DNA of 10,603 nucleotides, taken from positions 1-10,603 of the forward strand of contig JBFMGU010000329.1 of assembly GCA_040752415.1 (NCBI GenBank), written 5' to 3'. Position 1 is the first letter of the stretch, and each line of letters begins with the position of its first letter. The position numbers and the translations under genes are program-made. Below, piece by piece: positions 559 through 10,603 of this stretch. This DNA comes from Myxococcota bacterium. Its GTDB lineage: Bacteria > Myxococcota > JACRCW01. The notes beneath the pieces were generated by a model that was given only the letters and a program-made list of their open reading frames with translations, was not told the DNA's origin and searched no databases.

Positions 559-1548
559 CACGCCCAGCTTCTCCCGGAGCGCGGCGGCGCCCAATCCCGG
601 TGAGCCGCGTCCCTCCGCCTCCTTCACCAACGCAACAATCGCCGCGTTCACCGTGGCTCGGGTCCCCACCTTTTCCGCCAAGCGCACCACCTCGCCATTG
701 AGCGCGTCGATCTCCGTCTTGCGCCCCCGCGCGAGATCGTCCCACATCGACGAGCGCGCCTGCGGATCCACGGTCAACATGGGCCGCGCGACGAGGGAGA
801 ACACCGCGTCCGGCAGCGTGAGCACCCAAGGAACCAGGCGCGGCGGCAGCGGCACGTCGAGACGGGGTTGGATCCCGGCAGCGGACACGGCGTCCAGGCC
901 CTCCCGCACGCACGCGGCCATGACGCGCCGGTAGTCGCGCTGCGAGAGCATCTCCTTGATGGGGATGTTGGCCAGCGCATTCACCGGGTTGTTGAGATTC
1001 ACCAACAGCTTGCCCCACAGCACGCCGCGCATGTCGTCGTGGGCTTCAATCTCGAGGCCCGCGTGGGACAGCGCGCGCACCAGCGGCATCACCGCTTCCA
1101 CCCGCTCGACGGCAAGCCGGCCCGAGGTGCCCTGGTGGAAATGCGCACCCGCGCGTCGCAGCACGTTGAAGGGGACCATGCCGGCCAGCACCCGTTGCTG
1201 GGGCAGCGCGGCCCGCAGCAGCTCCGGGTTGTTCACGCCGTTCTGGAAGCTGACCACCAGCGCGTCTCGTCGGAGCACGCCGGCCAGCGCCGCACCCGCG
1301 CTCGCCGTGTCACCACCCTTCACCGTCACCAGCACCACGTCACAATCCGCCAGCGCGGTGGGCGCAGTGGCCACTTCCAGGCGCAATGTCTGGTCAAAGC
1401 CGCGGTAGTCGGTGAGGTGCATTCCGTGCTGCGCCACCTCGTCGGCGAGCGACTGTCGTCCCACCAGCACCACCGGCACGCCACTGTGCTGCAGGCGACC
1501 GCCCAGGTAGCAACCGATGGCGCCGGCGCCCATGATTCCCACTTTCAT
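541..1548 (-). CDS. panE: 2-dehydropantoate 2-reductase (ketopantoate reductase, PanE/ApbA family), 335 aa
   Basis: N-terminal Rossmann motif MKVGIMGAGAIG; family motifs VTVK, FQNGV, WGKLLVNLNN (catalytic Lys) and SSMWDDLARGRKTEIDALNG (catalytic Glu). Start trimmed to ATG 1548, which overlaps the upstream stop (ATGA). Confidence 0.9.
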   Translation of the reverse strand: MKVGIMGAGAIGCYLGGRLQHSGVPVVLVGRQSLADEVAQHGMHLTDYRGFDQTLRLEVATAPTALADCDVVLVTVKGGDTASAGAALAGVLRRDALVVSFQNGVNNPELLRAALPQQRVLAGMVPFNVLRRAGAHFHQGTSGRLAVERVEAVMPLVRALSHAGLEIEAHDDMRGVLWGKLLVNLNNPVNALANIPIKEMLSQRDYRRVMAACVREGLDAVSAAGIQPRLDVPLPPRLVPWVLTLPDAVFSLVARPMLTVDPQARSSMWDDLARGRKTEIDALNGEVVRLAEKVGTRATVNAAIVALVKEAEGRGSPGLGAAALREKLGVYSGFR

Positions 1549-2534
1549 CGTCGAGAACCCTCCACCAGCGCGTCCGCAATCCGCTCCGCAATGGGGAAAC
1601 CCAGGTCCCGTTGCAGCCAGCCCCATTCCCCCGCGGGATTGACCTCCAGGAACACGTGACGACCTTCCGGGTCCACAATGAAGTCCAACGCCGCGGACAC
1701 CAGGCCCAGTCGCCGCATCAGGGCCAGCACGCGCTCCGTCTCGTCGTCAGGCAGCGTGTAGGGTGTCCAATCAATGCCTTCCCCGGGCTGGGTGAGCCGC
1801 CAGTCCACGCGACCGCGCCGGGACCCGCGCGTGTCGATGGCACCGGTGAACACCTCGCTCCCCACGACGACAACGCGCAGCTCACAGCGCTTCCCGACGG
1901 TGGCCTGGAAGATCTGCGGCGCGTAGCGCACGTCGTCGATGGCAGCGAGATCCGCCTCGGTGACCTCGGTGGTATAGAAGAATTCGCTCGTGCCCTGCAT
2001 GCTGACGGTGAGCACGCCCAGCAGTTTCGTGACCATGCGCCCGCCCAGCTCGGCGTGGAAGGCGCGGACCTCGTCGGGGTTGTTGGTGACGAGCGTGGGT
2101 GGAAGGGTGAAGCCCAGCTCCTGCGCCACGCGCAGCTGCAGCAGCTTGGATTCCGCGCGGGTGTTGGCCTGCAGCGTGTTCACCCAGAACGCGCCATCCA
2201 TCAACGACAGCGCATCCACCAGCGCGGTGCGTGATTCCCGACGACAATGCTGCACGTAGCGCGGGTCCATCGTCTCCGGCATGGCGCCGGGCCAGACGCG
2301 ACGGTTCCACACCGCGGGCACCTCCCGTAACGCGACGGCCCCGCGCGGCGTCCTGAGCACCATCTCCTCCCGACCCGAGCGGAACGAGACGCTGAGCGCG
2401 AGCTCGACGGGAAAACGGTCCGTGTCCACGCGCAACGCCGGCACCCCGCGGGAGACCAGCGCCTGCTCGACGAGGTCGATGGTGTAGTAGTCGCCGCTGT
2501 GGGTCAGCAGCAGGATGGGAGCGGACGTGGTCAC
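1545..2534 (-). CDS. mvdC: Microviridin-type ATP-grasp peptide maturase, MdnB/MvdC (macrolactam ligase)-like, 329 aa
   Basis: ILLLTHSGDYYTIDLV, DTDRFP, VWNRRVW, AESKLLQLRVA-GF-LPPTLVTNNP, MVTKLL, ELRVVVVG, VDWR, FLEVNPAGEWGWLQRDLGFPIA. The THSGD start and GEWG end recall MdnB/MvdC rather than MdnC/MvdD (TFSxD..., GEFFW). Lies next to a PFFARFL precursor. GTG start. Confidence 0.88.
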   Translation of the reverse strand: MTTSAPILLLTHSGDYYTIDLVEQALVSRGVPALRVDTDRFPVELALSVSFRSGREEMVLRTPRGAVALREVPAVWNRRVWPGAMPETMDPRYVQHCRRESRTALVDALSLMDGAFWVNTLQANTRAESKLLQLRVAQELGFTLPPTLVTNNPDEVRAFHAELGGRMVTKLLGVLTVSMQGTSEFFYTTEVTEADLAAIDDVRYAPQIFQATVGKRCELRVVVVGSEVFTGAIDTRGSRRGRVDWRLTQPGEGIDWTPYTLPDDETERVLALMRRLGLVSAALDFIVDPEGRHVFLEVNPAGEWGWLQRDLGFPIAERIADALVEGSRR

Positions 2535-2590: not shown

Positions 2591-4330
2591 TCAGCCCGGT
2601 CCGCCGCCGTCCTCGTTGTCGGAGGGATACTTCTCGGTGAACAGGTTGCCGCCGCGACCGGGGCCGCCCGCGCCGTCCTCGTTGTCGGACGGGAACTTCA
2701 TGGTGACCATCATGCCACCGCCGTCGCCACCGCCGTCCTCGTTGTCGGAGGGATACTTCGCGGTGGTCACCTCACCGACACCGCCGCCGGCATCCTCGTT
2801 GTCGGAGGGATAACGCTCCGTGACGATGTCGCCGATGGTGCCGCCACCAGCGTCCTCGCCGTCGGAGGGAGCCTTCATGGTGACCATCATGCCACCACCG
2901 TCGCCGGCGTCCTCGTTGTCGGACGGGTAACGCTCGGTCACGGCCCCGCCGCCACCGACGCCACCCGCGCCACCGCCGCCACCCGCGTCCTCGTTGTCGG
3001 AGGGATAACGCTCCGTGACGATGTCACCGATGGTGCCGCCACCACCGTCCTCGTTGTCGGATGGCGCCTTCATGGTGACCATCACGCCACCGCCGTCACC
3101 CGCGTCCTCGTTGTCGGAGGGATAGCGCTCGGTGACCGCTCCGCCGCCCATGCGCGGCACCGGCTCGCCGCCACCGTCCTCGTTGTCGGAGGGGAACTTG
3201 CGGGTCATCACCACTCCGCCCCCGTCGCCGCCGCCGTCCTCGTTGTCGGAGGGGGCCTTCATGGTGACCATCACGCCACCGCCACCCTCACCCGCGCCGC
3301 CATCCTCGTTGTCGGAGGGGAACTTGCGGGTCATCACCACGCCGCCACCGCCGTTGTCGGCACCGCCGTCCTCGGCGTCGGAGGGGAACTTCTTGGTGAC
3401 CGCGCCCACGTTCTGACCGGTCTCACCCACGGGCCCGTCCTCGTTGTCGGAGGGGTACTTCAGCGTGACCGCCCCGACGCCACCCTCGGCGCCGTCCTCG
3501 TTGTCGGAGGGCGCCTTCATGGTGACCATCATGCCGCCGCCCTCGCCGGGGCGCTTGCTGCCGCCGCCATCCTCGTTGTCGGACGGGTACTTCATGGTCA
3601 CCATGCGACCCACCTCGCCGCGCGCAACCTGGCCACGGTTCTGTCCCTCGAGGAAGCGCGCGAAGAACGGCTTCACCGTGTTCTCGTCGCCACCGAGCTG
3701 CTGCAGGGTCAGCTTCTCCGCGCCCTTGGGGTTGGCCGCGGTGTGGATCTGCTGCGCCGCGGTGAACGCCTTGGAGAACTCCTGCTGCGCCTGCGCGCCC
3801 TCGGGGCTGCCCTTCAGCTTCTGCTGCGCGACGGCCAGCGTCTGGTTCGCCACGTTCTGCATGAGCTGGGTGCGGTCGGTGAGCAGGCGTTCCACCACCT
3901 GGGCCCGCGGGTGCTCCGGCGCGTGCATCTGGAACGCCTTGCTGGTCTTGCGCAGCGCATCCAGCACGGCGGTCTGCGACTCCAGCGTGTGATCCGCGGC
4001 CTTCAACGCCGTGATCAGCTCCTTCTCGATGGCGCGCACCTCACGCGGCACGCTCTGCACCGCACCGGCCTTCTGCGCCGCCACGCGCGCGCCCACCGCG
4101 CCCGTCCCACCTTCCCGTCGCGCGGTCTGCTGCGGCGCCTTGGGGGTCTCCTTGCGACCCGCGGGAGCCTTCTTCTCGAACGCGTCCGACTTCTTCGCCG
4201 AGGCCTTGGCCTGCTGCGCCTTGCTGGTCTGCTTGGCGGGGGCCTTGGCGGTGCTCTTCTGGACCGTCGACTCCGACGGACGCTTGCTGCCCGCGCTCTG
4301 CTTGGTGGAATTGCGGCGGATGGAAGTCAT
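2591..4330 (-). CDS. mdnA: Giant multi-core microviridin/marinostatin-family graspetide precursor, 579 aa, 16 cores
   Basis: PFFARFL at aa 221-227 (nt 3650..3670), followed by 16 TxK/R-Y/F/A-PSD-x-ED units separated by Gly-rich linkers. GGAG Shine-Dalgarno 6 nt before ATG 4330. Adjacent ATP-grasp ligase. Confidence 0.92.
   Translation of the reverse strand: MTSIRRNSTKQSAGSKRPSESTVQKSTAKAPAKQTSKAQQAKASAKKSDAFEKKAPAGRKETPKAPQQTARREGGTGAVGARVAAQKAGAVQSVPREVRAIEKELITALKAADHTLESQTAVLDALRKTSKAFQMHAPEHPRAQVVERLLTDRTQLMQNVANQTLAVAQQKLKGSPEGAQAQQEFSKAFTAAQQIHTAANPKGAEKLTLQQLGGDENTVKPFFARFLEGQNRGQVARGEVGRMVTMKYPSDNEDGGGSKRPGEGGGMMVTMKAPSDNEDGAEGGVGAVTLKYPSDNEDGPVGETGQNVGAVTKKFPSDAEDGGADNGGGGVVMTRKFPSDNEDGGAGEGGGGVMVTMKAPSDNEDGGGDGGGVVMTRKFPSDNEDGGGEPVPRMGGGAVTERYPSDNEDAGDGGGVMVTMKAPSDNEDGGGGTIGDIVTERYPSDNEDAGGGGGAGGVGGGGAVTERYPSDNEDAGDGGGMMVTMKAPSDGEDAGGGTIGDIVTERYPSDNEDAGGGVGEVTTAKYPSDNEDGGGDGGGMMVTMKFPSDNEDGAGGPGRGGNLFTEKYPSDNEDGGGPG
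2609..3598 (-). repeat. In-frame tandem array of 16 core-peptide coding repeats
   Basis: (g/a)tcctcgttgtcgga-type unit (SDNED codons) recurs every ~57-78 bp, always in frame. First core 3569..3598, last core 2609..2638. Confidence 0.93.
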
Positions 4331-4468: not shown

Positions 4469-4831
4469 GTGGCTTCCCCCAAGCGTCAGCGCGTCCTCGC
4501 CATCATCGCCACCGACCGCACCTTCGAGCGCGCGGAATATCGCGGTCGCGAGGTGTGGCAGGGGCGCTGCCTGCACTGCAACGCGTATCTCCTCGTCGAG
4601 CTGAGCGGGGAGGCCATCAGCCGCGCCACCATTGAGCACATCATCCCGCGCGTGCACGGCGGCACCGACGCGCCGGAGAACCTGGGCCTGGCCTGCGCGC
4701 GCTGCAACCAGGGCAAGGGGATGCGGCATGACCGCAACTTCAAGCGCGACCCGCGCGTCCAGGAGATGGTGGAGCGGCTGCTGCAACGTCGTCGTGAGCG
4801 CTGGCGCGACCCGGAGGAGGTGACGTCCTGA
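4469..4831 (+). CDS. HNH endonuclease family protein, 120 aa
   Basis: CLHC...ATIEHIIPRVHGGTDAPENLGLACARCNQGKG: CxxC zinc ligands flanking an H-N-N HNH motif. Confidence 0.88.
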   Translation: MASPKRQRVLAIIATDRTFERAEYRGREVWQGRCLHCNAYLLVELSGEAISRATIEHIIPRVHGGTDAPENLGLACARCNQGKGMRHDRNFKRDPRVQEMVERLLQRRRERWRDPEEVTS

Positions 4832-5412: not shown

Positions 5413-5667
5413 ATGACGGGGATCACCCTGCTGGGCCTGGTGGCCGGCACGCTGACGACGGTGGCATTCATCCCGCAGGTGCTCCACGTCTACCGGACGC
5501 GCAGCACGCGGGACATCTCGCTGGGCATGTTCGCCATCTTCAGCACCGGCGTGCTGCTCTGGCTCATCTACGGCGTCAGCATCCATGACGTGCCGGTGGT
5601 GGTGGCCAATGCCATCACGCTGGTGTTGGCGCTGATCATCCTGGCGTTCAAGCTCAAGTACGGCTGA
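5413..5667 (+). CDS. SemiSWEET (PQ-loop/MtN3) sugar transporter, 84 aa
   Basis: Three hydrophobic helices with LTTVAFIPQV (PQ motif), TRSTRDISLGM, LWLIYG and VVVANAI signatures. Start trimmed to ATG 5413. Confidence 0.9.
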   Translation: MTGITLLGLVAGTLTTVAFIPQVLHVYRTRSTRDISLGMFAIFSTGVLLWLIYGVSIHDVPVVVANAITLVLALIILAFKLKYG

Positions 5668-8600
5668 CAACGGCATCCGCGCCCAGCGCCTTCTCCAGCA
5701 CGCGCAGCGCGGTCCGCACCGCGTCGCTCTTGTCCGCCACCGAGGGCGCGCCCCCCTCGCCGGGAGCCCGCGCGCGGGTGATGCGCTTGCGCACCGCGGC
5801 CTTGAGGCGCTTCTCGTCGTCGCGGCGGCCTTCCTCGGCGGCCTGCCGGGCCAACATCAGCTCCCCGTGTCCCTCCTGCACATCCAGCACGGCCAGGCCC
5901 ATCTTGTCGTCGACGTCGGTGAGCTGGCGCCGGGCCGCGTCCCAGGCGGCGCGTGCCTCGTCGTGCTTGCCCAGCAGCGCTTCCACCGCGCCGAACGCCG
6001 TGAGGAACAACCCCTCGAAGCGACGGTCGCCCACCTGGCGCAGCGTGGTGACGGCCTTCTTGATGCGGTGGCGCGCGTCCTCCAGCTGGCCCTGTTCCAG
6101 GTGCAACGTGGCCAGGAAGCCCAGCGCCACCGCCTCGGTGCGACGATCCTGTGCCTCGCGCGCCAACAGGATCGCGCGGTGCAGGCGTTCCTCGGCGTCG
6201 TCGAGCTTGCCCATCTCCTGCTCCAGCAGGGCCAGGTTGCCGAGCTGGATGGCCTCGGTACGCAGGTCGCCCACGCCGCGCAGGATCTCAAGGGCCAGCT
6301 CGAAGTGGGAGCGCGCCTCGTCGAGCCTTCCCTGCGAGCGGTGCAGGTTGCCCAGGTTGCCCACCACCAGGCCCACGTAGCGCTCGTCGTTGACGTTGCG
6401 CAGGTGCTCCAGGGCTTCGGTGTAGCAGCGTTGCGCGTCGTCGATGCGCCCCTGCTGTCGACGGATGATGCCCAGGTCACCCTGGAGGCGACCCATGAGC
6501 CGCGCGTCGCCCGCGCCCCGCGCCCACTCCAGCGCCCTGGTGTCATCCGCCTCCGCCTCGGGGAGACGTCCCTGCATGAGCAGCGCCCAGCCGCGCACCT
6601 TGAGGACGCTGGCGAGCATGGCGGGCTCCACGTTGGCCTGCTTGGCCGCCGTCAGCGCCTGGGTGAGGAGGGAGAGATAGAGCGCAAAGGGTCCACGCGT
6701 GGCCAGCACGGAATCCACCGCCAGCATGACGCGCAGCGCCTGGGTCACATTCTCCGTCGTCACGGAGGCGGCCAGCGCGCGGTGGAAGACGGCGAGCAGG
6801 TTCTCCATCTCCAGGGAGAGCCTCTGCCGCACCTCGGCGCCCTGCGGGCCGTCGGCCTGGTCGGCGTATTGGCTGCCCAGCTTCAGGTAGTAGGCCGCGT
6901 GCCGGGCCCACACGCCGTCCTTCTGCCCCGACTGCACAAGCTTCTCCGCGGCGTACTCGCGGATGGACTCGTACATGAAGAAGCGCACCTCGCCGTCGTC
7001 GGTGTCGTTGGCGCGCAGCAGGGATTTCTCCCGCAGGGCTTGCATGACGTCGAGGACCCAGGGTGCGTCGGGCACGTCGGCGAGGTCCACCACGGCTTCG
7101 GCGGCCTCCAGGTCGAAGCCACCGCGGAACACCGAGCAGCTCGCCAGCGCGCGCTGTTCCCACGGCTGCAGCATGTTCCACGACCAATCAATGGCCCCGC
7201 GCAGCGTCTTCTGGCGACTGTTGGCATTGCGCGCACCGCCGGTGAGCAGGTCGAACCGACGGGGCAGCCGCTCCAGCAGCTTGGCCGCGCTCATCACGCC
7301 CATGCGCGCCGCCGCCAGCTCGATGGCCAGGGGCAGCCCGTCCAGCTGCCGCACCATCTCCGCCACAACGGGCGCATCCTGCGGCGTGAGCTCGTACTGC
7401 GGACGCACCAGCTTGGCGCGCTCCACGAACAACTGCACCGCCTCGCTGCCTTCCGCGTCTTCTCCCTCGCCGGGAACGGCCAGCGGGGCCAGCTCCAGCG
7501 GTCGCTCGCCCGGGACGCGCAGCAATTCGCGCGAGCTGACCAGGAAGCGCGCTTCCGGCGCAATGGTCATCCAGCGCTTCACCGTCGTGGCGGCGTGCTG
7601 CACCACCTGCTCGAAGTTGTCCAGGATGAGCAACACCTTGCCGCGCGCGGCCAGCGCGTGACCGAGCTGCAGCACGTTGTCGGCGCTGGTCTTGCCCAAC
7701 GTGAGCGGGACCTGCAGCGTCTGCGCCACGGCCGCGGTGATGTCGTCGACGGAGGTGGCCTCGCTGAGGTCGCAGAACCACACGCCGCCGGAGAGCGGGG
7801 CGCCGTAGAGGCTGAGGTGCTTGTGGCCAAAGCGGATGGCCATGCGGGTCTTCCCCGTCCCGGCCGGGCCCAGCAACGTGACGAGCCGCTCCCCCGCCTC
7901 CATGAGCTGGTGCAGCGCCTCCAGGTCCAGCGCGCGCCCCACGAAGCCTGGCGTCTCCGTCGGAAGATTGGTCTTGCGCTCCGGCGCGCTGTAGCCGCTC
8001 TCGGAGAGCTGGGTGATGGCGGAGAACACGCCTGGCTCGTCGACGGTGGGCTCGTCGACGGGCGGCGGCGGAAGCTCACGCGGCTGTTCCTGCGGCACCA
8101 CCGGACCACGCACGCTGACACCCGGTCCACTGTTGCCCTCGACGGGCGGGGGGCGCACCGGCATGCGTTCCCGGGAGGTGGGGCGGTTCTCCGGACGTCG
8201 CCGGGCCAGCAGCTCCTCGACGGCCGGCATGGCGGAGGCCGCGGCGGGCAACTGCTTCATGAGCTGCGCCTCCTGGGCCTGCACGTCGGTGAAGAGGGAG
8301 CGCACGAACCCGCCCACGCGCGCGGGTGAGTGCATGATTCCCGCCTCCGCCATGAACGACTCCAACGCCGCCACCAGCTCCGCACAGGAGGCGAAACGCT
8401 TCTCCTTCTCCCGCGCCAACGCAGTCATCACAACGTCTTCCAGCGCGCGCGGATAGTCCGGCTTCAACGACGTGGGCCGCGGGATCTCCCCTTCGATCAC
8501 CGCGTGCAGGGCGAGGATCTCCGTCTCCCGCTTGAACAGGCGGTGCAGGGTGGTGATCTCGTAGAGGATGATGCCGAGCGCGAACTGGTCGGTGCGGTGG

Positions 8601-9205
8601 TCGATCTCGTAGCCCGCCGCCTGCTCCGGCGACATGTAGCTGACCTTGCCCTTGAGCACGCCGCTGCGCGTCTCGATGGCCTGGCCCCGCGCCTTGGCGA
8701 TGCCGAAGTCCACCACCTTCGTGGTGCCCTCGTAGGTGACAATGACGTTCTGCGGGGAGATGTCGCGGTGGATGATGCCCAGCGGCTCACCCTGGAGGTT
8801 GGTCTTGGTATGCGCGTAGTGCAGACCGCTGGCGGCGTCGACGACCATCTGCAGCGCATGCGCCAGGGGGAACGGCTCCCCGCGCTTGTTGCAGCGGTTC
8901 ATGATGCGCGCAATGTCCTGCCCCTGCAGGTACTCCATGACGAGGAAGAACTGGCCGTGGTCCTCCCCCACGTCGAGCACGGCCACCACGTTGGCGTGGC
9001 GCAGGTCCGCGGCCACCCGGGCCTCCGCGAACAGCATGCGGACGAAGTCCTCGTTCTCGGCGAGGTGCGGATGGATGCGCTTGACCACCACCAGCTTCTC
9101 GAACCCGTCGAGACCCACCTGGCGCGCCAGGAACACCTCGGCCATGCCGCCTTGGGCCAGGCGACGCAACACGGTGTACTTGCCCGCCAGGGTGGTGCCT
9201 TCCAT
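5654..9205 (-). CDS. Ser/Thr protein kinase - STAND (NB-ARC-like) ATPase - TPR repeat protein, 1183 aa
   Basis: Kinase motifs LAQGGMAEV, VVVKRI, HRDISPQN, DFGIAK, YMSPEQ, TDQFALG. Pro-rich linker. Walker A GPAGTGKT, Walker B LLILDNFEQ and GLPLAIELAA (GLPL motif). C-terminal ~40-aa TPR-like repeats (GDLGIIRRQQGR, GNLGNLHRSQGR, GNLALLEQEMGK). 3' end overlaps the SemiSWEET gene by 14 bp. Confidence 0.92.
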   Translation of the reverse strand: MEGTTLAGKYTVLRRLAQGGMAEVFLARQVGLDGFEKLVVVKRIHPHLAENEDFVRMLFAEARVAADLRHANVVAVLDVGEDHGQFFLVMEYLQGQDIARIMNRCNKRGEPFPLAHALQMVVDAASGLHYAHTKTNLQGEPLGIIHRDISPQNVIVTYEGTTKVVDFGIAKARGQAIETRSGVLKGKVSYMSPEQAAGYEIDHRTDQFALGIILYEITTLHRLFKRETEILALHAVIEGEIPRPTSLKPDYPRALEDVVMTALAREKEKRFASCAELVAALESFMAEAGIMHSPARVGGFVRSLFTDVQAQEAQLMKQLPAAASAMPAVEELLARRRPENRPTSRERMPVRPPPVEGNSGPGVSVRGPVVPQEQPRELPPPPVDEPTVDEPGVFSAITQLSESGYSAPERKTNLPTETPGFVGRALDLEALHQLMEAGERLVTLLGPAGTGKTRMAIRFGHKHLSLYGAPLSGGVWFCDLSEATSVDDITAAVAQTLQVPLTLGKTSADNVLQLGHALAARGKVLLILDNFEQVVQHAATTVKRWMTIAPEARFLVSSRELLRVPGERPLELAPLAVPGEGEDAEGSEAVQLFVERAKLVRPQYELTPQDAPVVAEMVRQLDGLPLAIELAAARMGVMSAAKLLERLPRRFDLLTGGARNANSRQKTLRGAIDWSWNMLQPWEQRALASCSVFRGGFDLEAAEAVVDLADVPDAPWVLDVMQALREKSLLRANDTDDGEVRFFMYESIREYAAEKLVQSGQKDGVWARHAAYYLKLGSQYADQADGPQGAEVRQRLSLEMENLLAVFHRALAASVTTENVTQALRVMLAVDSVLATRGPFALYLSLLTQALTAAKQANVEPAMLASVLKVRGWALLMQGRLPEAEADDTRALEWARGAGDARLMGRLQGDLGIIRRQQGRIDDAQRCYTEALEHLRNVNDERYVGLVVGNLGNLHRSQGRLDEARSHFELALEILRGVGDLRTEAIQLGNLALLEQEMGKLDDAEERLHRAILLAREAQDRRTEAVALGFLATLHLEQGQLEDARHRIKKAVTTLRQVGDRRFEGLFLTAFGAVEALLGKHDEARAAWDAARRQLTDVDDKMGLAVLDVQEGHGELMLARQAAEEGRRDDEKRLKAAVRKRITRARAPGEGGAPSVADKSDAVRTALRVLEKALGADAVVSRT

Positions 9206-9333: not shown

Positions 9334-10518
9334 TCAGACGGTGACGAAGGGGACGCTGGGCGTCTCGTGCAGGCGGGATTCCTGCTGGTAGCTGCGGAAG
9401 TAGTGGAAGATGTAGCCCATGCGCTCGTCGTACTTCGACCAGTCCGAGGCGTCGCTGTGCTGGGTGGACTGCGGGTCCTGGCCAAAGCGACGCGCCTCCG
9501 CGTTCATCTCCGGCACGGCGTTGAAGCTGGTGAGCTCGAAGGGCGCGGCCTTCTGCACGTCCTGCCCCAGCACCAGGGATTGGCCGGGGATGTTGAGGCG
9601 CATCTGGTCGGTGACGTTGTCGTTGTAGCTCATGCCGGGCATGGCGCCCTTCACGAAGCGGTCCGCCACCTGCTGCTCATGCTTGGCGACGAGGAAGTTG
9701 CCCTGGAACATCAGCTCCGCGCGCCGGTTCTCCGCCTCGTAGCCCTTGGCGTCCTTCAGCGTCATGGCCTCGTGGTAGGAGCGGAACGCGTTCTGCAGGT
9801 CCGGCTTCCCCTCGAGCGCGGGCTGCTTCACGAAGTCGTCGATCATCTGCTGACCGCGCGCGGGGTCCTTCCTCCACGACGTGTCATTCTGGAAGGTGTT
9901 GATGAAGCGGCTGAAGTGCGGCGCGATGTCGCCGAAGATGGCCTGGTTGCCCTTGGCCACGGCGTCCGCGGCGTCGTCCTTCTTCCAGTTCTGCACCGGC
10001 TTGGTGACGAAGTTGACGAGGCCACCCACCGGGGAGTCACTGCCGGGCAGCTTGACGTCGACCTCCTTGCGGATGACGCCACCGGCGGTGTTGCTGGCCC
10101 ACTTGCCGAACGTGAGCCAGTTGGCGTTGTCCTTCCCCACCAGGCTGGCCATGCCCTCGCTCAGCTCATGGTAGCCGCGCGTGATGGCGTAGTTGCGCTG
10201 CACCGGGTCCTTCATGTCCGCCACGCGACGCACGTGCGCCTCGTCGAGATACGCGCTCTGGAATCTGGGCTCCGCGCGGGGGCCGCCCACGTCGGTGGCC
10301 AGCCGCTGCTGCAGCATCTGGGCCCGCATGTCATGACGGGACACGGTGCGGGAGTCCTGCTGGCGCTGCGGATCCACGGGAGCGCGTGCGGCGGGCTCGG
10401 TGGTGCGGGCCGCGGGCTGTGAGGTGGTGGTCTGCGCCGGCTGGGCGGGCTTCGCCGTCGACGTGGAGGTGGTGGCCTGGGTTTGAACCGGTCGTGATCC
10501 GCCGCCGTCAACGCGCAT
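9334..10518 (-). CDS. Hypothetical protein, DUF2515-like domain after a low-complexity T/S/P/Q/A N-terminus, 394 aa
   Basis: Long ORF with strong GC3 codon pattern. Motifs RNYAITRGY, ANWLTFGKWAS, GNQAIFGDI, HEQ and DWSKYDERMGYI resemble DUF2515-type families (from memory, unverified). Start chosen at ATG 10518 (MRVDGGG). Confidence 0.7.
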   Translation of the reverse strand: MRVDGGGSRPVQTQATTSTSTAKPAQPAQTTTSQPAARTTEPAARAPVDPQRQQDSRTVSRHDMRAQMLQQRLATDVGGPRAEPRFQSAYLDEAHVRRVADMKDPVQRNYAITRGYHELSEGMASLVGKDNANWLTFGKWASNTAGGVIRKEVDVKLPGSDSPVGGLVNFVTKPVQNWKKDDAADAVAKGNQAIFGDIAPHFSRFINTFQNDTSWRKDPARGQQMIDDFVKQPALEGKPDLQNAFRSYHEAMTLKDAKGYEAENRRAELMFQGNFLVAKHEQQVADRFVKGAMPGMSYNDNVTDQMRLNIPGQSLVLGQDVQKAAPFELTSFNAVPEMNAEARRFGQDPQSTQHSDASDWSKYDERMGYIFHYFRSYQQESRLHETPSVPFVTV

Positions 10519-10603
10519 GGGTAGCCCCAGAAGCAGGTGCGTCAGTATCGACTCTGGTTCCGGGCCCGTCCACATCCGTCGGACAACTGACGGGTGCGCC
10601 CAT

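Follow-up and report, generated by a model that had tools for sequence, protein, structure and literature searches.

A lactam-type microviridin ligase with no ester-type partner beside a 16-core precursor on a Myxococcota contig

Results

We examined a microviridin-type locus on a metagenomic contig from a Myxococcota bacterium (GenBank assembly GCA_040752415.1, contig JBFMGU010000329.1), in which a precursor with 16 core peptides is accompanied by one ATP-grasp ligase. The window, as we call the stretch analyzed, is the entire contig of 10,603 nucleotides (nt), encountered once; the remainder of the genome lies outside the data. Three genes run head to tail on the minus strand: that of the precursor (2591-4330) and, after a 56-nt gap, that of the ligase (1545-2534), followed by panE (541-1548), which encodes 2-dehydropantoate 2-reductase. 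Genes for an HNH protein, a cupin and a SemiSWEET lie beyond the precursor on the opposite strand. An initial annotation made from the sequence had described the same layout, with the precursor and panE flanking the ligase and unrelated genes past the precursor.

The ligase gene is intact and encodes a 329-aa ATP-grasp macrocyclase for peptides that are ribosomally synthesized and modified after translation (RiPPs). Its open reading frame (ORF) starts with GTG and has no in-frame start further upstream. The protein carries the MvdD pre-ATP-grasp domain PF21068 (109 bits, Pfam) together with a RimK-type ATP-grasp domain. We refer below to MvdC/MdnB-like enzymes, assigned to the lactam, as C-type and to MvdD/MdnC-like enzymes, assigned to the esters, as D-type. 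The NCBIfam MvdC model (TIGR04185) scored the window ligase at 365.5 bits and the MvdD model (TIGR04184) at 267.9 bits, both under the equivalog cut-offs of 425 and 475 bits, respectively. Among PDB proteins the best match was MdnB (5ig8, 286.9 bits, spanning residues 6-327), ahead of AMdnB (7m4s, 281 bits), MdnC (5ig9, 187.8 bits) and CdnC (7mgv, 162.2 bits). The closest of the database homologues listed (P0002) is 61% identical, and identity to the Microcystis orthologue at the related locus L015 is 44%.

The window protein was aligned with 40 of the 119 other listed homologues (41 sequences), and the best 80 of 256 genome matches were retrieved with the ligase alignment as related loci with 10-kb flanks (designated L001 and so forth), in which ATP-grasp ORFs were found by a profile built from the 41 sequences. 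C- and D-type ligases separated with support of 99 in a quick IQ-TREE tree of 158 ligase rows (81 C-type, 77 D-type) and of 100/100 in a more careful tree of 61 rows from 31 of the 80 loci plus the window. The window ligase fell within C both times, on the same side as the Microcystis MdnB orthologues, and a grouping with MvdD/MdnC is rejected. The MvdC/MdnB-like class given in the initial annotation, which had called for exactly such scoring and phylogeny, therefore agrees with the lead of about 100 bits for the MvdC model, with the PDB scores and with both trees. NCBIfam labels were confirmed in 33 representatives. The first genes of Microcystis reached 530 bits on MvdC (above 425) and the second genes 548-553 bits on MvdD (above 475), and Microcystis and Moorena orthologues scored 509-531 bits on TIGR04185. 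At loci with multicore precursors, first genes scored 278-365 bits on MvdC and second genes 379-417 bits on MvdD, each about 100 bits better on its own model.

Within the C clade, the window ligase belongs to a subclade of 16 rows (support 97; 15 rows in the careful tree, 99/95), referred to here as the multicore subclade. Its nearest set of five rows comprises the window ligase and those of L074, L068, L001 and L071 (95; careful tree, 95/95). The D partners of the multicore-subclade loci form a parallel clade (99).

The window ligase retains all 46 columns that are invariant in the 41-sequence alignment. Nine columns discriminate between C and D, being at least 85% conserved in each group with a different residue, and at these the window ligase has the C residue in eight cases and the D residue in none. 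At 65 columns conserved to at least 95% in the remaining C-type rows (79, with the partial L069 row left out), it deviates twice, compared with six deviations in L001, four in L071, three in L068 and two in L074, and its end branch in the 158-row tree (0.42) compares with 0.44 and 0.60 for the paired sisters L074 and L068. With eight of nine columns C-like, few deviations and an unexceptional end branch, the enzyme looks like an ordinary paired C-type ligase. The leader-recognition dyad, Glu191/Asp192 in MdnC, is Ala-Asp here, and it varies in paired relatives too (QD, AA, AH), so that it is not informative. The gene is predicted to encode a functional ATP-grasp ligase of the MvdC/MdnB clade.

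At the multicore loci L066, L070, L068 and L074, the C end branches are two to three times longer than those of the D-type ligase of the same locus (for example, 0.99 vs 0.32 in L070 and 1.09 vs 0.40 in L066). The longer C branches in the subclade suggest that the lactam step may be under weaker constraint than the ester step.

The precursor gene encodes a 579-aa protein of the microviridin/marinostatin type that exceeds the family cut-offs (NF033738, 238.8 bits against 26; PF12559, 183.5 bits against 21). Residues 221-227 (3650-3670, minus strand) match exactly the PFFARFL leader motif, which is described in the literature as the motif recognized by the ligases. The array that follows (2603-3604, minus strand), delineated from per-core codons and tandem repeats, holds 16 cores of the form T-x-(K/R)-x-P-S-D-x-E-D, spaced by Gly-rich linkers that differ in sequence. 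The core residues T, P, S, D, E and D are unchanged in 16 of 16. The lactam position is Lys in 12 cores and Arg in the other four, which read TERYPSDNED (3098-3139, 2981-3022, 2903-2944 and 2786-2827, within the span 2786-3139), and both ester-forming residue pairs are kept in every core, the Arg cores included.

By analogy with microviridin, rings would join Thr to Asp (i, i+6), Ser to Glu (i, i+3) and Lys to Asp (i, i+7), and the Arg cores could make just the two esters, as in marinostatin. Since the ester pairs are invariant in 16 diverged repeats and the Lys is replaced in four, ester formation appears to be the selected step. The retention of ester residues even in cores incapable of lactam formation further argues that esterification is still required. 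The ring-residue codons TCC, GAC and GAG are each found in 16 of 16 cores, a codon bias so extreme that a codon-level test for purifying selection on these residues gives no information.

The precursor's N-terminal segment (residues 1-220, within 3650-4330) begins with about 90 low-complexity residues rich in Lys, Ala and Gln. The roughly 130 residues between this stretch and PFFARFL recur in conserved form in three other precursors (L068, L071 and L001), with 25-32% identity over residues ~95-240, and the window leader as a whole is much longer than cyanobacterial microviridin leaders. Precursors with 10-16 cores and long N-terminal domains (L001, L066, L068, L070, L071 and others) come from metagenome-assembled genomes (MAGs) labelled as Rokubacteria, Arenicellales, Vulcanimicrobiota and Myxococcota.

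When every ORF of 30 aa or longer was searched with the profile, the ligase at 1545-2534 proved to be the only ATP-grasp gene in the window, as the initial annotation had claimed. Seven D-type ligases used as tblastn queries matched only the C-type gene, with everything else at E > 0.3, which rules out a hidden D-type remnant or pseudogene in the window. Canonical mdnA-E and mvdA-F clusters are recognized by two paralogous ligases; the 10.6 kb of the window hold one.

This state is rare among the relatives. A D-type ligase lies immediately downstream of the C-type ligase in 76 of the 80 related loci, or 76 of the 78 informative ones, L046 and L059 being uninformative because they end less than 100 nt past the C-type gene. 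A D-type ligase is present in all 15 other members of the window's multicore subclade. The C-only state thus occurs in 1 of 16 subclade members and, with the window counted, in 3 of 79 informative loci overall. The other two, L023 and L052, are from Pyrinomonadaceae and combine a C-type ligase and precursors with 3-4.5 kb of downstream sequence that holds no second ligase or remnant; L052 is C-only, whereas L013 of the same MAG has both C and D. The C-only multicore locus is real and rare.

Multicore precursors were present at L001, L003, L004, L006, L031, L066, L068, L070, L071, L072 and L080 of the subclade, with 7-16 cores in ORFs of 185-517 aa from stop to stop (that of L080 is cut by the contig end). 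The L070 precursor likewise has three Lys-to-Arg cores. The ligase tree of the multicore loci does not track taxonomy, which suggests that these clusters may have spread horizontally. L074, of the nearest five-row clade, is a whole contig of 15,492 nt with C and D ligases at 9951-11913, and neither the 9.9 kb upstream nor the 3.5 kb downstream of them holds a recognizable precursor; its cluster is split in the converse manner, with the ligase pair present and the precursor absent from the contig.

The slot held by the D-type ligase in the relatives is occupied in the window by panE. The protein has 335 aa counted from the ATG at 1548 and scores 432.6 bits on NF006083 (cut-off 371); within the longer ORF the matches start at residue 26-27, and the homologues have 320-340 aa. 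The best of these are 81-67% identical, and those named are from Myxococcota or Polyangia MAGs, so that the source is probably an uncultured Myxococcota member lacking close relatives among sequenced organisms. The ligase TGA (1547-1545) overlaps the panE ATG (1548-1546) in an ATGA tetranucleotide (1545-1548, minus strand) of the kind associated with translational coupling. In at least 8 of the 15 multicore relatives (L066, L068, L070, L071, L075, L080, L004 and L006), the C stop codon likewise shares nucleotides with the D start codon ([AG]TGA). The panE gene opens with ATG AAA GTG, which differs from the opening of the L070 D gene, GTG AAA GTG, only in the start codon, a match that hints at a microhomology-mediated replacement of D. 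No panE gene was found within 10 kb of the related clusters (0 of 80 loci), nor was there synteny of other window genes. The GC content is 0.65-0.71 across the window and 0.66-0.70 over the ligase/panE junction.

The initial annotation had also listed an ABC transporter (MdnE) and a GNAT acetyltransferase (MdnD) as missing. Neither was found in the window with Pfam or NCBIfam, and no GNAT, C39 peptidase or exporter-type ABC protein was found among the scanned neighbor ORFs of 13 multicore relatives, where the sole ABC match was of the branched-chain amino-acid type (L001). The relatives were scanned with Pfam after ORF calling with a simple greedy caller, which may overlook small genes masked by longer spurious ORFs. 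The scan took 62 of 101 ORFs in one batch and 45 of 60 in a second, the dropped ORFs mainly overlapping ligases or precursors. Two Microcystis controls (L015 and L024) also showed no GNAT or ABC match, so that the sensitivity of the scan for these families is not validated. The two genes are therefore absent from the window as stated, and their absence is not notable, since the 13 multicore relatives are without them too. The minimal set of the multicore subclade is a precursor with a C-type and a D-type ligase (A-C-D).

Discussion

In microviridin biosynthesis, the enzyme that acts first, the ester ligase, is considered essential. The canonical order, as described in PMC12848669 and PMC5934393, is large lactone, small lactone, lactam, with MdnC/MvdD forming the esters and MdnB/MvdC the amide, which is the order that the initial annotation had presupposed. 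The loss known as normal is that of the lactam ligase, which according to a review is thought to yield marinostatin-type bicyclic peptides. The window is the reverse, with the lactam-type ligase kept and the ester-type ligase missing; the neighboring 16-core precursor is intact, and its ester residues are fully conserved. Our literature search turned up no report of a C-type ligase without D; supplements of other published studies may list single-C loci or precursors with more than ten cores. Class II precursors are credited in a review with up to five cores, and one large survey is described as limited to precursors of at most 150 aa. The multicore subfamily, with 7-16 cores, precursors of 320-580 aa and minimal A-C-D clusters in several phyla, may be under-described.

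For the missing ester ligase, the initial annotation had offered three readings, all of them reasonable: that this enzyme does both chemistries, that it acts on unesterified cores, or that the ester ligase is supplied in trans. The last, which is also the most ordinary, is the best supported and the likeliest of the three. We put it at somewhat better than an even chance that another part of the genome encodes a D-type ligase, as a result of a split cluster or in a second microviridin-type cluster from which it is borrowed. The PFFARFL helix of the 579-aa precursor would recruit the ligases. The off-contig D-type (MvdD/MdnC-like) enzyme would make the Thr-to-Asp and Ser-to-Glu esters on each of the 16 cores, the window ligase would then close the Lys-to-Asp (i, i+7) lactam on the 12 Lys cores, and the four Arg cores would remain bicyclic, as in marinostatin. 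The data show the family and clade of the ligase, the anatomy of the locus, the absence of D from the contig and how rare this is; the ring pattern, the order of steps and the supply of D in trans are what we infer.

Several observations point in this direction. The ordinary C-type sequence of the window ligase, together with the behavior of MyxC, argues that it does not itself esterify; MyxC, an MvdC-type enzyme from Myxococcota, is reported to have left the precursor MyxA1 unmodified when acting alone, and published MvdC-type enzymes in general are described as inactive on precursor that lacks the esters. D-type ligases are reported to act on foreign precursors that share the leader motif, AMdnC processing MdnA and MdnC processing AMdnA, which makes supply in trans plausible. 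Scattered parts also have precedent in the relatives, in L052 and L013 of one MAG and in L074 with its missing precursor. If an ester ligase does act in trans, this would be a graspetide cluster split across the genome, and cluster-based genome mining would mis-score such loci.

Other observations weigh against supply in trans. With the data confined to the contig, no D-type gene of the source organism has been observed. C and D co-diverge in the relatives, which points to pairs that are matched and not freely borrowed. The tight coupling to panE through ATGA indicates that the D-less layout is no loose insertion and may be stable, which would also fit a self-sufficient enzyme. In addition, the C- and D-type ligases of the multicore subclade both score under the equivalog cut-offs, and the division of labor assigned to them here would follow from phylogeny.

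The main rival is a recent loss of the D gene, through a deletion or rearrangement by which the C gene became fused with panE, leaving a locus that is non-productive or heading to decay. The D-less state is unique among the 16 multicore C-subclade members and hence derived, the overlap of the C stop with the panE start mirrors the C/D overlap of the relatives, the shared AAA GTG codons fit a microhomology-mediated deletion, and panE is near none of the 80 related loci. Decay, however, is not apparent: the repetitive 1.7-kb ORF of the precursor is uninterrupted and its 16 cores are all intact, the ligase keeps every family-invariant residue and has diverged no further than its paired sisters, and no remnant of D is left in the window. 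We regard such a loss as unlikely, though worth keeping in view.

A second rival, which we hold to be improbable, is that the C-clade enzyme is the sole macrocyclase and, working unaided, forms the two esters as well as the lactam on every core. It is the single ligase on the contig, is co-transcribed with the precursor, and is intact at every invariant column, and the ester residues are invariant in the 16 cores, including the four unable to form a lactam. Chemoselectivity is also not absolutely fixed by clade, as MyxD1, an enzyme of the MvdD branch, is reported to make lactams, and plesiocin and thuringinin are described by Makarova as needing one ATP-grasp enzyme for all linkages. Against this, the claim that the enzyme does both finds no support in its sequence, which is D-like at none of the nine discriminating columns and, compared with the paired sisters, has neither surplus changes at conserved sites nor an unusually long branch. 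MyxC, the one Myxococcota MvdC-branch enzyme reported to have been tested alone, did not modify the linear precursor; our literature search turned up no C-clade enzyme that forms esters. If the ligase did work alone, no C-clade enzyme before it would have had ester chemistry, and the fixed division in which D makes esters and C the amide would be overturned. The chemoselectivity assignment of both clades would change, and there would be a one-enzyme route to tricyclic protease inhibitors.

The absence of D could instead be only apparent, either because a chimeric assembly was joined where the C gene ends or because D lies just past the repeats at the contig's left edge. The whole 10.6-kb contig was encountered once and ends in repeats that probably broke the assembly. 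Both reading frames, however, are intact over the 4-nt stop/start overlap and the GC content is even at the junction, and a layout in which panE and 0.5 kb of repeats separate D from C has no counterpart among the 76 relatives, in which D directly follows C. We consider this quite improbable. A lactam-only product, in which unesterified cores are cyclized from Lys to Asp and no esters form, is the most straightforward interpretation of the genes on the contig and very improbable, as 4 of the 16 cores have Arg for Lys yet keep T, S, D and E, and as the lactam comes last in the canonical order and MyxC alone is reported to be inactive on linear precursor.

The locus can be set beside several known systems. 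MdnB/MvdC (PDB 5IG8) shares the clade and fold family and is likewise encoded beside a precursor that has a PFFARFL leader and a TxKxPSDx(D/E)(D/E) core, whereas the window ligase scores under the TIGR04185 cut-off, has no adjacent MdnC/MvdD partner and faces 16 cores rather than one, with Asp rather than Glu as lactam acceptor. In the class II system of Anabaena (AMdnB/AMdnA, PDB 7M4S), a C-type ligase also serves a multicore precursor, but one with three cores, and the cluster has its own AMdnC, which is reported to handle several cores distributively. The multicore A-C-D loci of Myxococcota, Rokubacteria, Arenicellales and Vulcanimicrobiota share the C subclade, TxKxPSDxED cores (in precursors of 320-520 aa) and the lack of a GNAT or exporter seen nearby, and differ in having the D-type gene directly after C, where the window has panE.

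The four TERYPSDNED cores resemble marinostatin in having Arg at the lactam position and both ester pairs, and marinostatin is described in a review as a double-cyclic peptide without an amide bond. The same review ties the marinostatin type to the absence of MdnB (C-type), the opposite of the window, where C is present and D absent. The myxomiditide pathway of deep-sea Myxococcota (MyxF/D1/D2/C) is also of microviridin type, with MyxC reported to add only the final lactam after the esters, but it has four ligases per cluster, single-core precursors and an extra KxxE motif, compared with one ligase and 16 cores here. Plesiocin and its ligase PsnB (PDB 7DRM), from a myxobacterium, likewise combine one ATP-grasp ligase with a repeated-core precursor, but PsnB is distant (35 bits), the core motif is TTxxxxEE and the product contains esters only.

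Other features of the contig

Downstream of panE, the contig ends in a repeat-rich non-coding region (1-560), in which repeat and remnant scans detected no trace of an ATP-grasp gene. The two copies of a 61-nt direct repeat (2-62 and 121-181) are 98% identical, the arms of a 39-nt inverted repeat (319-357 and 457-495) match perfectly, and there are other, imperfect inverted repeats. The region is probably a cluster of elements resembling repetitive extragenic palindromes or miniature inverted-repeat transposable elements (REP/MITE-like) that halted the assembly. Rfam gave no match in 1-560, and promoter and terminator scans returned nothing useful.

The HNH protein beyond the precursor is a stand-alone endonuclease of 120 aa (4469-4831, plus strand), which NCBIfam matches best, though far below the cut-offs, to the HNH portions of IscB and Cas9d. 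A 413-aa protein with a Thr/Pro/Ala-rich N-terminus and no Pfam or NCBIfam match is encoded at 9334-10575 (minus strand). The gene at 5654-9205 (minus strand) encodes an 1183-aa protein that joins a Ser/Thr kinase to a STAND/NB-ARC-like NTPase and TPR repeats, an architecture typical of myxobacteria.

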